Positions 2,821-11,009 of a DNA stretch of 11,257 bases are shown here, in pieces. Position numbers and translations under genes: made by a program. The DNA is from an uncultured archaeon. Its GTDB lineage: Archaea > Asgardarchaeota > Lokiarchaeia > Sigyniarchaeales > SOKP01. Under the pieces are notes generated by a model that saw only the letters and a list, made by a program, of their open reading frames with translations, was not told the origin of the DNA and did not search any database. Numbering within the stretch: the stretch's first letter is position 1; the number at the start of each line of letters is the position of its first letter. The stretch spans positions 1-11,257 of the forward strand of contig CAZGJX010000121.1 in NCBI GenBank assembly GCA_964525635.1, given 5' to 3'.

Positions 2821-3741
2821 ATGTTTAGGGAGAAATTTAAGGATGGTATAATAAGTGCTCGTGATTTTAATAGGGAAGATATAGAATATCTTCTGGAAAA
2901 AGGCCATGAAATGATAAATATTAAGAATTCTAAAATACTTGAAGGAAAAATCTTAGCTACATTATTTTTTGAACCCTCAACACGTACAAGATTAAGTTTT
3001 GAATCAGCAATGCATAGATTAGGTGGAGATGTTATAGGTTTTCAATCAGGAGATGTCTCTTCAATTAAAAAAGGAGAGAGTTTAGCAGATACAATACGAA
3101 CTGTAGAAAACTATTGTGATTGTATAGTAATACGTCATTCAAGAGAGGGTTCTGCTAAAATGGCTGCAAGATTTTCTAGTATTCCAATAATAAATGCTGG
3201 TTCAGGTAGTAAAGAACATCCTACACAAGCTTTATTAGATCTATTAACGATAAAAGAAGAAATTGGCACTTTAGATGGAATAAATATAGGAATCATGGGA
3301 GATTTAAAATATGGTAGAACCGTGCATTCTTTAGCCATTTTACTCTCTAATTTCAATGTAAGTTTATATTTCATTAGTCCTGAAGAATTAAAAATGAGAA
3401 ATAGATATAAGGATTACCTTTATCAACATAGAAGAATTAAATTTAAAGAAATCACCAACTATAGAAAAATATTAGATATATTAGACGTTTTATATATGAC
3501 TCGAATTCAAAAAGAAAGATTCGCTGATTTGGAAGAATATGAAAGAATAAAAGATGTTTATGTTTTTACAAAAAAAGATCTTAACCAAACAAAAGACAAT
3601 TTCAAATTACTACACCCCTTACCCAGAATTAATGAAATTTCCACAGATATAGATAAATCAGAAAAAACCATATATTTCGAACAGACATATTATGGATTAA
3701 AAATGAGACAAGCAATTCTAGCGGAATTATTAAAAGACTAA
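2821..3741 (+). CDS. pyrB: Aspartate carbamoyltransferase catalytic subunit
   Basis: Signature motifs FFEPSTRTRLSFE, KKGESLADT, IVIRH, INAG..EHPTQALLDL, GDLKYGRTVHSL, MTRIQKERF and HPLPR are all present. Confidence 0.98.
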   Translation: MFREKFKDGIISARDFNREDIEYLLEKGHEMINIKNSKILEGKILATLFFEPSTRTRLSFESAMHRLGGDVIGFQSGDVSSIKKGESLADTIRTVENYCDCIVIRHSREGSAKMAARFSSIPIINAGSGSKEHPTQALLDLLTIKEEIGTLDGINIGIMGDLKYGRTVHSLAILLSNFNVSLYFISPEELKMRNRYKDYLYQHRRIKFKEITNYRKILDILDVLYMTRIQKERFADLEEYERIKDVYVFTKKDLNQTKDNFKLLHPLPRINEISTDIDKSEKTIYFEQTYYGLKMRQAILAELLKD

Positions 3742-5724
3742 TTATTCTATAGGATTGAATTTAAAAGCAGTTAAATTAGAATTCAATAACTTATTAATAG
3801 TTAGGGTCAAATCATCTGACTTATTGGATTTAATAGGCATTTCAAATAAAGATCCTCCATCAATGATTTTATTAAATTTCTTAAATAAAGAAAGATGTCT
3901 TTCTATAGGTAATTTAGAATTCTTTCTAATAATTCTATAAGAATAAGGATTAGTATTATTTTTTGATTTTATTTTATTATTAATTGAATATTCTTTTAAA
4001 TAAATACCATTATGAGGTTGAGATAAACAATATTTATTATTTTCTGTATTATTTCTCATATTAATTATCTCTTTCATTTTTTTCATAATTTTCAGAGCAA
4101 ATAATTCACTCTGATTAATTTGATCTAATTCTAAACCACAATGGTGTTTTATTGCTTCATTTAAACCTATAAAACTCACAGATTTAATCATATTATTTGC
4201 TAAAGAGTTTGATCTATATTCAAAAAAGTGATCAATTATTTTTTGCCATTCAATCGAATTCCCTATTTTTTTTATCATTAGTGATTCTTTAATTTTAAAA
4301 AGGTCAAATACGGAGTATATACGATTTTCCAGAATCTCATAAAATTTATCATCATCTTGGTGTGCTTCCAAGGCAATATAATGTAAATTAATTAATATTT
4401 TATCTAAAATAATTTTATTAGAATTCTTAGAATTATTGATTCCAAAACTAACTAAATTCGAATTTAATAGGTTATTTTTACCATTATAAAATATATATTT
4501 ATGTAAATATTTGAAAAAATCCAAGTTATTTAACAATTCATTTAATATTCCTTGATTTTTTACATTTAGATAATTAAAGAATAAATAGGGAGAATATTCA
4601 ATATCTTTAAAATAATTAGTCTCAAATATTTTTTGAATTGTTTTTAAGTATCTATTAGTATCATAATTATCTAGATTGTTTTTCAAATTTAATCCTAACT
4701 CTATATTTGAGATAGTATTTTTCCTATTAAATCTTGAAATTTGTGAAAGTAATAAATTTATAGTATGATTTAATTTATTATCAGGGAAATTGAAAGTATC
4801 AATAAATTCTTCAAAATTAACTAATAGAATATTGCTCGAAAAATACGGATTGAATAAATCAAGAAATTTACAAAATTCTATAATTAATTTAGAACATTTA
4901 ATATTATTTATTTTATTTTTTAAAGATACACCTAGGTTTGTTTCTATGAGATATTGTAAAAGTGATTTTGATTGTAGAAAAATACTCAGAGGTTTGATTG
5001 CCCAATAATTTAAATTTAATAATATAATTCTATTAGATAAATACAGATCAGCAAGTTTATTAGGTAAAAGGTTTAATAATAAAAACTGTTCTGATACTTC
5101 TGACCCTAGCTTTTTTATAAATTTATCAGGATTATATGATTTATTGTGAAATAATTCAAATGTATCAAAAGGAGGGACACCTAATCTAGTTAGTTTATGC
5201 CTACAATGTTCTAATCCTTCTTCTAATAAAATCCCATTAATATATTCTCTCATTAATGGTGTAGTTAAATATTTTATATTCGTTTTTAATAGTCTCTTTT
5301 TTACTACTTTTGCTATTTGATTTGCTAAAAAAGAATCCATCTCCGCTTCTTTAACTAAATAATCCCTTACTTTTTCAATATTAAAAGGTTCAGTAGAATA
5401 TTTTGAAGTTCTAATTAAGACTTTTTCATTAACTTCATTTAAAGTTTGTTCAATATCCAGTATTTTTATTAAAATTTTTTTACCCAATTTTGTAATTAAA
5501 TAACCATCTGAAGAGGATTCGATAAAATCCACTTCTTTTAACACATTCAAATGAAATGATAAATTAACGGAATTATTCTCTGATCCTAATATTTCTTTTT
5601 GAATCTCAGAGAAAGATAAGTTCTTCTCTGTAACATACAATTGTTTTAAAATATCCAATCTTATTCTTTTTCCAATCACTTTTAAATGTTTTTCTAAAAG
5701 CTTTGAAATTTTGTCGGAATCCAT
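3742..5724 (-). CDS. ArsR-like winged HTH + ATP-cone + degenerate class III ribonucleotide reductase (NrdD-like) fusion; putative nucleotide-responsive regulator or pseudoenzyme
   Basis: aa ~10-90: RIRLDILKQL..LSFSEIQKEI..NLSFHLNVLKEVDFIE..GYLITKLGKK (wHTH). aa ~102-185: IRTSKYSTEPFNIEKVRDYLVKEA..IAKVVKKRL..YLTTPLMREYINGILLEEG..RHKLTRLGVP (archaeal NrdD-type ATP-cone). Later NrdD-like blocks are INLHYIALEAHQDDDKFYEIL, SVSFIGLNEAIKHHCG and LPIERHLSLFKKFNKIIDGGS. No C-terminal CxxC/CxxC or RxxGY motif. Confidence 0.85.
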   Translation of the reverse strand: MDSDKISKLLEKHLKVIGKRIRLDILKQLYVTEKNLSFSEIQKEILGSENNSVNLSFHLNVLKEVDFIESSSDGYLITKLGKKILIKILDIEQTLNEVNEKVLIRTSKYSTEPFNIEKVRDYLVKEAEMDSFLANQIAKVVKKRLLKTNIKYLTTPLMREYINGILLEEGLEHCRHKLTRLGVPPFDTFELFHNKSYNPDKFIKKLGSEVSEQFLLLNLLPNKLADLYLSNRIILLNLNYWAIKPLSIFLQSKSLLQYLIETNLGVSLKNKINNIKCSKLIIEFCKFLDLFNPYFSSNILLVNFEEFIDTFNFPDNKLNHTINLLLSQISRFNRKNTISNIELGLNLKNNLDNYDTNRYLKTIQKIFETNYFKDIEYSPYLFFNYLNVKNQGILNELLNNLDFFKYLHKYIFYNGKNNLLNSNLVSFGINNSKNSNKIILDKILINLHYIALEAHQDDDKFYEILENRIYSVFDLFKIKESLMIKKIGNSIEWQKIIDHFFEYRSNSLANNMIKSVSFIGLNEAIKHHCGLELDQINQSELFALKIMKKMKEIINMRNNTENNKYCLSQPHNGIYLKEYSINNKIKSKNNTNPYSYRIIRKNSKLPIERHLSLFKKFNKIIDGGSLFEMPIKSNKSDDLTLTINKLLNSNLTAFKFNPIE

Positions 5725-5934: not shown

Positions 5935-6267
5935 CTATAGGTCTTTATTTTCATCATCTGAAATAAATTCTTCTTTTAATTTTAAAAGAATCTGTTCTTT
6001 TTCTTCTTTTGATAATATATTGAGATTATCTCCTTTATTTTCATATATATCAGAAGGTTTATTGTCAACTAATGATAATAAAATAATTAGAGCATTTTTT
6101 AACCAATTTTCATTTTCTGGTTCTTTTAATGCATTCATAAGGCGAGTAATTAAATTACCTTTCCATTTCTCCATTGTAATTGGATCTTTATCAAATTTTG
6201 AAAATAAATTGATTATATTACTATAACAATCTAATTCCTTCTCATCAGGGGATTTTTTCTTAGACAT
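5935..6267 (-). CDS. Hypothetical protein (110 aa, probably helical)
   Basis: ATG-started ORF with Glu/Lys/Leu-rich, protein-like composition. It fills the gap between two genes on the same strand, and the opposite-strand ORF looks like a shadow. No family recognised. Confidence 0.75.
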   Translation of the reverse strand: MSKKKSPDEKELDCYSNIINLFSKFDKDPITMEKWKGNLITRLMNALKEPENENWLKNALIILLSLVDNKPSDIYENKGDNLNILSKEEKEQILLKLKEEFISDDENKDL

Positions 6268-7923: not shown

Positions 7924-8796
7924 TTATGATGAATTTAGGCTTTTTTTATTTATATTTGAAAATATAAGAAACATTTCGAGGATTTTATTAATTTCATAGT
8001 CTTTTTTCTGTGATTCTAATCCAAATTTGAAAAAATTAACTCTCTCTGTTAATTTAAAATTATTTGAATATTCATCCAATTTAATAAAACCTAATTTTTC
8101 TAATCTTTTCAAATGTAAAATTGCATCTTTTTTTGATAAATTTAAGTCTAAAAATAAGTCATTAGTACTGTATTTCTTTTCATAATCATAATTTAATATA
8201 ATTTCTAAGTCATTTTTATAGTTTTGAAAAACAAATTCTAAATATTTGTTTTTATCTGATATTTTAATAATTAATTCGGAGATTAGACAAAAGGTTTTGA
8301 AGAAATATTTTTTAGCGATTGATGTTGTATGAATAGTAATTTTAAAATCAATTTTCATTTCTTTGTCTATAAACTCATTAATTGCTTTAATTTTATGTTG
8401 CAGATATAAACCATCTATTAAATCTATCTTGTGTAATAATATAACGATTTCAATATCAATCAGCTTCATTTTGTTATAAAGAGTAATGAGGTTATTTAGA
8501 AATTTAATAATATCTTTCAAATAACTGTTAATATCTAAGACACAAATAATTATATTAGAATTAATGAAAATATCTTTATCTTTATCAAACCAAATGTTAT
8601 TTTCTTGACCAGCTAAGTCAAATACGGCAAAATCTAAATCAAAAAATGAGTAGACGATTGACTCTATTCCTTTAGTAGGATCTAGGGATTTCTCTAATAA
8701 TTCCAATGGATTAACCATTTCAAAAAAAACCTTTTTTAATGTTGTTTTTCCTGTCCCAGCAGGTCCTATAATTACTATCTTTTTAGTTAGCCTCAT
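7924..8796 (-). CDS. Rag-like small GTPase fused to a C-terminal winged helix-turn-helix domain
   Basis: G1 GPAGTGKTT, G2 DPTKG, G3 FDLAGQE, G4 LLHKID, G5 TTSI. aa ~193-258 DLEIILNY..KYSTNDLFLDLNLSKKDAILHLKRLEKLGFIKL..NNFKLTER follows a wHTH pattern. Confidence 0.85.
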   Translation of the reverse strand: MRLTKKIVIIGPAGTGKTTLKKVFFEMVNPLELLEKSLDPTKGIESIVYSFFDLDFAVFDLAGQENNIWFDKDKDIFINSNIIICVLDINSYLKDIIKFLNNLITLYNKMKLIDIEIVILLHKIDLIDGLYLQHKIKAINEFIDKEMKIDFKITIHTTSIAKKYFFKTFCLISELIIKISDKNKYLEFVFQNYKNDLEIILNYDYEKKYSTNDLFLDLNLSKKDAILHLKRLEKLGFIKLDEYSNNFKLTERVNFFKFGLESQKKDYEINKILEMFLIFSNINKKSLNSS

Positions 8797-8981: not shown

Positions 8982-9605
8982 TTAAAGATTTCTGAATTTT
9001 AACTTTAAATTCTTTTCTTTTAACTGATATTCTGGACATAATTTATTATTCGGAAAATTACAAATTGACTCCTTTTTGGGTAAAACACATTTTCGAGAAA
9101 AAGGACAGAAGAAGATATAATATCTCTCAATCCTTTTTTTAATGTTAAACATAGCTAAATAAGATAAAATGAAATCTACATCTATATCTATATCTATTAA
9201 ATCAAATTCCTTCAAATTTTCTATTATTTGATAGAAATCATGAATTAGGTTTAATTCAGATATTTTTTGAAGTATTAATATGTTCTTGTTATTTGTTTCT
9301 ATTTTTTGCTTATATTTTTTCATCATTTTAAAAAAAAAATCCTTTAGATTTATATCAGATTCCTTATCAGTTTCTAAAAGATACAATATTCTATTGAGAT
9401 ATTCCTCAACAATGAGTTTTATTTCGCTACCTATTGTTAAAACCTTTAATTGACCTAATGAATTCTTAGATTCTGGAATCAATTCTGTTTTAAGAGTCAT
9501 GATAATGAATTCTATGTGTTTTTTTAGCGTTTCTCTATTTTTATTTATATTGGACATTAACTTATTTCCATTCATTATTTTAAGTTTTTTTTCTCTTGAA
9601 TTCAA
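8982..9605 (-). CDS. Hypothetical protein with a C-terminal four-cysteine motif; probably the intact 3' part of a longer decayed gene
   Basis: 207 open codons from a TTG start. The C-terminus is CPFSRKCVLPKKESICNFPNNKLCPEY (CX5CX8CX7C). The start is uncertain, with in-frame ATGs at codons 11 and 17. Confidence 0.65.
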   Translation of the reverse strand: MNSREKKLKIMNGNKLMSNINKNRETLKKHIEFIIMTLKTELIPESKNSLGQLKVLTIGSEIKLIVEEYLNRILYLLETDKESDINLKDFFFKMMKKYKQKIETNNKNILILQKISELNLIHDFYQIIENLKEFDLIDIDIDVDFILSYLAMFNIKKRIERYYIFFCPFSRKCVLPKKESICNFPNNKLCPEYQLKEKNLKLKFRNL

Positions 9606-10385: not shown

Positions 10386-11009
10386 TTACCGCGCTGATAA
10401 AGAAATCCTCTCGATTTCATCCTTTTTTTTAATTGCTTTTGAATCTTGACTGTTTCTGGCAGCTAAAATTAATTCTTGAGCTACATTTTCTTCAAAAGTT
10501 TTTATATTATGATGGGTTGCTGAACCAATTGCCTGAACTAGAAATTTTATTGCTAAATCTACTCGTCTCTGGGGGGCAATGTCGACGGCAGAGGAATATG
10601 AAATTCCACCCATCGCTATCCTAGTAATTTCTTCTCTAGGAGCAGTATTGCATATAGCATCAACTAATACTTTAACAGGATTCTTTCCAGTTTTTATATC
10701 TATTAACATAAATGCATTTTTTATTGTTTTCAAGATATGATTCTTTTTTCCTTGATGATATGAACTTTTATGACCTTTTGTCTTTGTTGCAATAAACCCA
10801 GGTGATAATAATCTATTAACAAATCTTTCAATAACAGAAACTTTTGTTGTTTTCCAAAATGTTTTTTTTTCATGTCTTCCACATGAGTGAGGAATAATGA
10901 TAGGTTTTAAATTTATATATCTTTCAAGGGTCCAATCATTTACTTCAATATCATCAAAAGACCATCTATTAAATAGTGTAATCTTGTTCTTGTTTTCTTT
11001 TTCACTCAT
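10386..11009 (-). CDS. rps7: Small-subunit ribosomal protein uS7 (archaeal type)
   Basis: LFNRWSFDDIEVND..LERYINL..PHSCGRH, GKNPVKVLVDAICNTAPREE, GGISY..AVDIAPQRRVDLA and AIKKKDEIERISLSAR are archaeal/eukaryotic-type uS7 motifs. Confidence 0.97.
   Translation of the reverse strand: MSEKENKNKITLFNRWSFDDIEVNDWTLERYINLKPIIIPHSCGRHEKKTFWKTTKVSVIERFVNRLLSPGFIATKTKGHKSSYHQGKKNHILKTIKNAFMLIDIKTGKNPVKVLVDAICNTAPREEITRIAMGGISYSSAVDIAPQRRVDLAIKFLVQAIGSATHHNIKTFEENVAQELILAARNSQDSKAIKKKDEIERISLSAR

Follow-up and report, generated by a model that had tools for sequence, protein, structure and literature searches.

Rag-like GTPases of Asgard archaea are already known, and two have been crystallised (LokiRagO, PDB 8YL2; LokiRagM, 9M28); almost none of them has an assigned partner or output. 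In the supplement of Tran et al. (2024; PMC10933270), a protein of the cultured archaeon MK-D1 is listed as 'GXLX', X standing for a domain of unknown function, and the supplement text reports no activity for it. Helix-turn-helix (HTH) proteins that act together with GTPases have also been described. The HTH protein MfpC (DUF742) is the GEF for the conservon GTPase MfpB (PMC11343762); FeoC binds the G-domain region of FeoB, and helix 3 of KpFeoC contacts NFeoB (10.1101/2022.02.26.482101); and in NPRL2/3, winged helix-turn-helix (wHTH) domains lie behind longins (PMC3747258).

Here we describe a gene that combines these elements in one protein. It lies in a window of 11,257 nucleotides, by which we mean the whole stretch of DNA analysed, from a contig (C121) of a 4.45-Mb genome of 26.8% GC. 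An original prediction, made from the sequence alone, held that the gene encodes a Rag-like GTPase in which a wHTH has replaced the roadblock domain, and proposed that the protein is a GTP-switched transcription factor. The gene does encode a fusion of a Rag-type GTP switch with a winged helix (Table 1). The fusion appears to be new: full-text searches, which covered few subscription journals, returned neither a description of a Rag-wHTH fusion nor a paper on LokiRagO or LokiRagM.

Table 1. Features of the Rag-wHTH gene and of its neighbour, in window coordinates
Feature	Position	Strand	Basis or remark
GW family type I gene, 290 aa: Rag-like G domain, winged helix and tail helix	7924..8796	-	ATG start
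Rag/Gtr-type G domain, aa 3-180	8257..8790	-	Pfam PF04670, E 2e-16; structure Z 22-23 to RagA, Gtr1, LokiRagO
G1 P-loop GPAGTGKT, aa 11-18	8743..8766	-	Sequence; G16 and K17 invariant in 102 homologues
G3 DLAGQ with catalytic Gln (Q64), aa 60-64	8605..8619	-	Invariant, 102/102
G4 HKID with Rag-type His, aa 122-125	8422..8433	-	H122 and K123 invariant; D125 in 101/102
G5 TSI, aa 158-160	8317..8325	-	T158 and S159 invariant; I160 in 99/102
Winged helix-turn-helix, aa 190-262, MarR/ArsR-like topology	8011..8229	-	AlphaFold2, structure searches, HTH profile
Helix 3 ('recognition'), aa 222-234: variable N-terminal half, acidic 224, hydrophobic 227; conserved C-terminal RLEKLG	8095..8133	-	
Wing hairpin, aa 238-249: short, acidic/hydrophobic, without conserved Arg or Lys	8050..8085	-	
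Conserved tail helix and strand, aa 269-284, short family only	7945..7992	-	Model, conservation
Neighbouring Rag-like GTPase with roadblock-type tail, 318 aa	6489..7445	-	Longin-less relative of the longin-Rag-roadblock protein

Results

A Rag-type G domain

The complete set of G1-G5 motifs claimed in the original prediction, with the Rag-type HKID and TSI, is present, T41 serving as G2. The Pfam family Gtr1_RagA covers residues 6-192 with 60.5 bits against a cut-off of 22, and outscores both Arf (4e-8) and Ras. Structure searches likewise place RagA, Gtr1 and LokiRagO at the top, ahead of Arf and Rab (Z of 19 or less). The G domain thus lies nearer to Rag/Gtr than to any of Arf, Ras and Rab. 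With its motifs intact, the protein presumably cycles between GTP and GDP. Switch I contains an extra helix (aa 30-35) that is specific to the subfamily. We also note that the residue following the switch-I Thr, residue 42 (8671-8673, minus strand), is Lys in the window protein and Arg in 92 of the 102 members of the short family, and that in the long family described below the commonest motifs have Phe, Tyr or His at this place; it is possibly a subfamily-specific catalytic or effector residue.

The C-terminal domain is a winged helix

The AlphaFold2 model of the window protein, computed from a 102-row alignment, has a pLDDT of 90 and a pTM of 0.89. Its C-terminal region consists of a helix (190-202), a strand (208-210), two helices (211-217 and 222-234), the hairpin 238-249 and a further helix (251-262), with a tail helix at 269-280. 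The wHTH had been placed at 8220-8023, which falls inside the modelled domain (8229-8011). The three-helix, three-strand winged-helix fold was found by the model, by structure searches and by an HTH profile. When the isolated domain was used for structure searches, only wHTH folds were matched (CggR, MarR, IclR, ArsR and Z-alpha), the best with a Z of 9.9 and an rmsd of 1.6 over 61 residues; the families are tied, none being prominent, and the wHTHs of SelB are among them. Pfam matches to the winged helix alone are weak (HTH_5, E 0.009). The HTH profile, which combines 35 unrelated HTH segments found in the source genome, gave 26.6 bits for the window protein and more than 10 bits for 88 of 102 family members, a value that none of 507 shuffled and none of 102 reversed sequences exceeded.

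An independent model in the ESM Atlas, representing a 78-member archaeal cluster, superimposes on the whole window-protein model with a TM of 0.94 and an rmsd of 1.6. The two models agree in predicting a fixed arrangement of the domains, and with them the claim that the C-terminal region folds as a wHTH stands. Conservation of the winged helix (0.56) is near that of the G domain (0.64). A homodimer prediction on the family alignment scored 0.16 against a mark of 0.42, a result that is neutral either way.

An outside donor of the domain was not found in a HMMER search of 1.8 billion proteins with the C-terminal domain, whose 14 matches (34-68% identity, same region) are apparently family members or fragments. 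The ESM Atlas feature search with the same domain gave no usable match, Rfam and promoter scans detected nothing, and a search across sequencing runs listed no RNA run as containing the sequence.

A short family, a long paralogue and their place in the Rag clade

The window protein belongs to a conserved family of Lokiarchaeia with 185 matches; among the matches listed, most are about 290 aa long and 38-69% identical to it. The Asgard origin supposed in the original prediction agrees with the labels of these homologues (Promethearchaeota/Lokiarchaeota). The protein stops at residue 290, and about 100 homologues likewise end there. Of 68 genomes sampled from the source's taxonomic family, about 20 contain full-length short forms, and outside this family there are a few divergent ones (L095, L097 and L113). 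The other Asgard families sampled gave no match at E 1e-25, except for long forms in a sister family. Loki-type kinase and Rag genes were also seen on two contigs labelled Patescibacteria and Bathyarchaeota (L090 and L097), which are probably mis-binned or mislabelled.

Two subtypes make up the short family, and both are represented once in the source genome, by the window gene (type I) and by C111:8161-9054 (type II). By the HTH profile these are the only two of its 84 small-GTPase-like open reading frames to carry a wHTH, in keeping with the view that such a fusion is unusual for the Ras superfamily.

In a paralogous family, whose members are about 500-513 aa long, this same pair of G domain and wHTH is followed by a longin-type domain and a helical tail. 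The wHTHs of the short and long families match with an hhalign probability of 92.8 (E 4e-7). The family has a member in MK-D1, WP_147663498.1, and residues 183-262 of this protein superimpose on MarR-type models with a TM of about 0.8; the first 'X' of GXLX is the same winged helix as that of the window protein. Since wHTH and longin, a domain of the roadblock class, coexist in this family, the wHTH is not simply a replacement of the roadblock domain, and that part of the original prediction is not supported. A search for fused forms longer than 535 aa gave three matches of about 560 aa, a length that fits the long type. The tail of the short family gave no profile match to the long-form longin. 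The long form was not found in the four genomes of the source genus; MK-D1 and a closed genome of the sister family have long forms only.

A quick tree of G domains unites the short and long families with the longin-Rag-roadblock (LGR) proteins in one clade with a support of 100, and the short forms are an old clade of their own. The tree gives these three groups no firm order within the clade, so that the longin may have been either lost or gained. A stand-alone homologue of the longin and tail ('LX'; C40:30024-30776, equal to L122:6025-6777, minus strand) encodes 250 aa without a Pfam match. It occurs in 71 of 101 genomes of the family, a far wider spread than that of the short family, and was for this reason kept as a lead only and not as a dedicated partner.

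Genomic context

In relatives, the gene is part of a conserved island, whose other members are PAS-HisKA kinases, stand-alone receivers, a folliculin-like longin of 226 aa that has a GP motif, the longin-Rag-roadblock protein, an Arf/Rag-like GTPase of 490 aa and the long form. In the source genome, the folliculin-like longin is at C111:9092-9772. A kinase or receiver is nearby in 34 of 41 loci and another Rag-like GTPase in 30, the loci being related to one another so that these counts are not independent. Directly upstream there is a folliculin-like longin in 16 loci (type II) or a receiver in 6 (type I), and type I genes often begin 20-123 bp after the receiver gene. The window copy itself does not lie in the island, and the 11 kb of the window contain neither a kinase nor a receiver.

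The 318-aa neighbour in the window has 39% identity with the C111 copy of the longin-Rag-roadblock protein but lacks the N-terminal longin, no remnant of which was found upstream of it. It is a possible partner of the window protein. A fixed pairing of the two was rejected: it was not seen in the closest relative (L051) and occurs in 2 of 41 loci only.

Two orphan genes flank the GTPases, 8982-9605 (minus strand; about 200 aa with a Cys-rich C-terminus) and 5935-6267 (minus strand; 110 aa). They have two and five paralogues, respectively, in the genome, and one of each adjoins the other on C34 (32115-33506). The 660-aa protein at 3742-5724 (minus strand) begins with an ArsR-like wHTH (DUF7347, HTH_20) and has an ATP cone; its body resembles NrdD only weakly (E 1e-14), with a score that falls far short of the NCBIfam cut-off. 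No RxxGY glycyl-radical motif is visible at its C-terminus, and a defunct class III ribonucleotide reductase may here have been turned into a regulator. Among the remaining genes noted in the window (10386-11009, 1066-1272, 2386-2667, 2821-3741 and 1437-2276), those for ribosomal proteins S7, S27e and L44e and for aspartate carbamoyltransferase can be recognised from their sequences as housekeeping genes; a SAM methyltransferase (Pfam) is also among them, and none is tied to the finding.

Helix 3 compared with transcriptional regulators

The winged helix was compared with regulators in (i) the composition and (ii) the conservation of its DNA-facing positions, which were located through an alignment and the usual geometry of HTHs, not through model coordinates. 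For composition, the controls were 35 HTH regulator segments of the source genome. Position 224 is Asp or Glu in 71% of the family; in the controls it is Ser or Thr in 60% and acidic in 0%. Position 227 is hydrophobic in 78% of the family versus 6% of the controls (Pro in 44% of type I), Lys or Arg occupies position 222 in 8% versus 40%, and the net charge of the wing is -0.8 versus +0.7. Neither conserved polar or basic base-reading residues at the start of helix 3 nor a basic wing was found. The family and nine controls were not told apart by their overall net charge (p 0.6, n = 9), which was for that reason dropped as a discriminator in favour of the position-wise tests.

For conservation, three sets of orthologues from the same archaeal family were used (ArsR-, Lrp- and DtxR-type), each comprising the 30 best matches to one query. 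Seven DNA-facing positions of helix 3 are 87, 80 and 73% conserved in these sets, at 58-63% mean identity, which is 1.0-1.2 times the domain mean. In type I, where the mean identity is 58%, conservation of the same positions is 54%, or 0.79 times the domain mean, and falls to 46% once duplicates are removed; in type II it is 37%. These positions are the least conserved part of the domain. The helix 3 of the long paralogue, located between G domain and longin, is net acidic (-1.5), with Asp or Glu in 58-81% at three exposed positions. These comparisons show a helix 3 that has lost the conserved DNA-reading signature of true transcription factors in the same organisms.

Against a role in protein contacts stand several basic residues that are conserved in helix 3 or behind the wing, K223 (85% in type I), R231 (91%), K234 (63%), R252 (91%) and K257 (92%), which could bind the phosphate backbone. 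All fold matches are nucleic-acid-binding wHTHs, a result that mirrors the content of the PDB. The position of the window copy away from the island also counts against this role.

Discussion

We consider it probable, from sequence comparisons and predicted models, that the protein is a Rag-clade switch of the kinase-GTPase island, and that its winged helix is a protein-contact domain, with longins acting in trans. The GTP/GDP switch would work within a conserved Lokiarchaeial signalling island. The winged helix, derived probably from a MarR/ArsR-type regulator, would now contact proteins: it may dock a partner, which could be a longin protein, a receiver, a kinase or a Rag-like GTPase of the island, or it may pack on its own G domain, or do both. 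The longin that is fused behind the wHTH in the GXLX paralogue would here be supplied in trans. Nucleotide cycling, partners and winged-helix role are what we infer; the fold, motifs, conservation, tree and context, as well as the lost DNA-reading signature, are the observations described above.

A role in protein contacts is suggested by helix 3, whose composition at positions 222, 224 and 227, together with that of the wing, is unlike that of the 35 control regulators, and whose conservation is low at matched divergence. It is also suggested by the acidic helix 3 of the long paralogue in its place between G domain and longin, by the kinases, receivers and Rag-like GTPases of the loci, and by the fixed domain arrangement on which the models concur. 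Finally, there are precedents for HTH domains that act on GTPases in MfpC, FeoC and NPRL2/3. Protein contacts had been the fallback in the original prediction, and fit the evidence better than a transcription factor does.

Alternatively, the domain might bind DNA or RNA without sequence specificity and tether the GTPase to the nucleoid or to RNA, in the manner of the Lrs14/Sso10a chromatin wHTHs or the SelB wHTHs. We regard this as rather unlikely. Variable base-reading positions combined with conserved basic residues would suit binding to the backbone, there are weak NCBIfam matches to Sta1, Lrs14 and Sul12a, far under the cut-offs, and Z-alpha and SelB wHTHs belong to the tied fold matches. 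However, the domain has a mean net charge of about 0 and its wing is acidic, as is the corresponding helix of the long paralogue. Z-alpha domains are marked by an Asn/Tyr/Trp signature, which is absent from the family columns.

That the protein is a sequence-specific, GTP-switched transcription factor, whose winged helix binds operators and whose nucleotide state is set by the island kinases or a longin GAP, seems distinctly unlikely. The MarR/ArsR-like fold is intact, with R231, R252 and K257 conserved, and in the labelled loci, where kinases and stand-alone receivers occur, no DNA-binding response regulator is evident. The close position of type I genes behind a receiver resembles that of a split REC-wHTH regulator, and a comparable link is the one proposed for the group 3 MglA systems (PMC4316618). 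What weakens this part of the original prediction is the state of the base-reading positions, which are the least conserved ones and are acidic or hydrophobic, with Pro common at 227 in type I, and a wing without a basic motif; helix 3 has neither the composition nor the conservation of matched regulators. In addition, no shared palindrome rises clearly above the shuffled null upstream of four island gene classes (14-29 regions each; top z 3.4-4.4 versus null maxima of 4.0-4.9), which is a weak test in AT-rich DNA. We would give little credence to a Rag-clade GTPase that serves as a DNA-binding regulator and as the transcriptional output of an Asgard island, its nucleotide state being set by PAS kinases, receivers and a folliculin-like GAP; such a one-component factor would link two-component input of the bacterial type to a eukaryote-like Rag switch. 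If the helix does bind DNA, which is the less likely case on these comparisons, this would be a new signalling design.

Lastly, the short form could be a truncated GXLX that keeps its winged helix as a vestigial spacer and structural cap, as the long form carries this domain at the corresponding position and the helix-3 surface drifts, but this is very improbable for an old clade with two subtypes and a conserved tail of its own, in which the domain is nearly as conserved as the G domain.

The finding bears on the Asgard Rag-like GTPases more generally. The analysis identifies the first 'X' of the MK-D1 GXLX proteins as a winged helix. It also defines a short sister family that has neither longin nor roadblock domain, and places both families in one conserved kinase-receiver-longin island. 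This provides a parts list for asking what relatives of the Rag proteins did before TORC1 and lysosomes, one version of which is present in the cultured MK-D1.

Comparison with known systems

FeoC/FeoB and NPRL2/NPRL3 are systems in which wHTHs occur with GTPases and DNA binding is unproven; their wHTHs are not fused to a Rag G domain. We liken FeoC, NPRL2/3 and MfpC to the window wHTH by analogy only. The MarR/ArsR factors have the same fold as well as the RLEKxG motif at the C-terminus of helix 3 and the LT motif, but in the window protein the N-terminus of helix 3 and the wing are without conserved polar or basic residues, and there is no MarR-type N-terminal dimer helix.

The actinobacterial conservon (CvnA-D; MfpE-D-C-B) has the same parts list, namely a histidine kinase, a roadblock/longin regulator (in the conservon a roadblock GAP), an HTH protein and a small GTPase, and its HTH protein MfpC binds the GTPase. 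In the conservon, however, the GTPase is of the MglA type and the HTH is a separate protein, whereas the GTPase of the island is of the Rag type. Pfam scans of the window protein gave no DUF742 row, and the resemblance is therefore an analogy only.

The Rag/Gtr proteins (RagA-D, Gtr1/2), LokiRagO and LokiRagM share with the window protein the G-domain fold (Z 22-23), the G4 His, the TSI of G5 and the Gln of G3. The identity is about 20-25%, and the full-length structures differ by an rmsd of more than 10 Å. The window protein has no roadblock domain, its C-terminus being a wHTH and one helix, and it would consequently form no roadblock-mediated heterodimer and have no Ragulator docking; it is wired to two-component genes. 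The GXLX protein of MK-D1 has in addition a longin and a long helical tail, where the window protein ends in a short tail helix; the two have in common the G-domain clade, the gene island and, as the first X, the winged helix.
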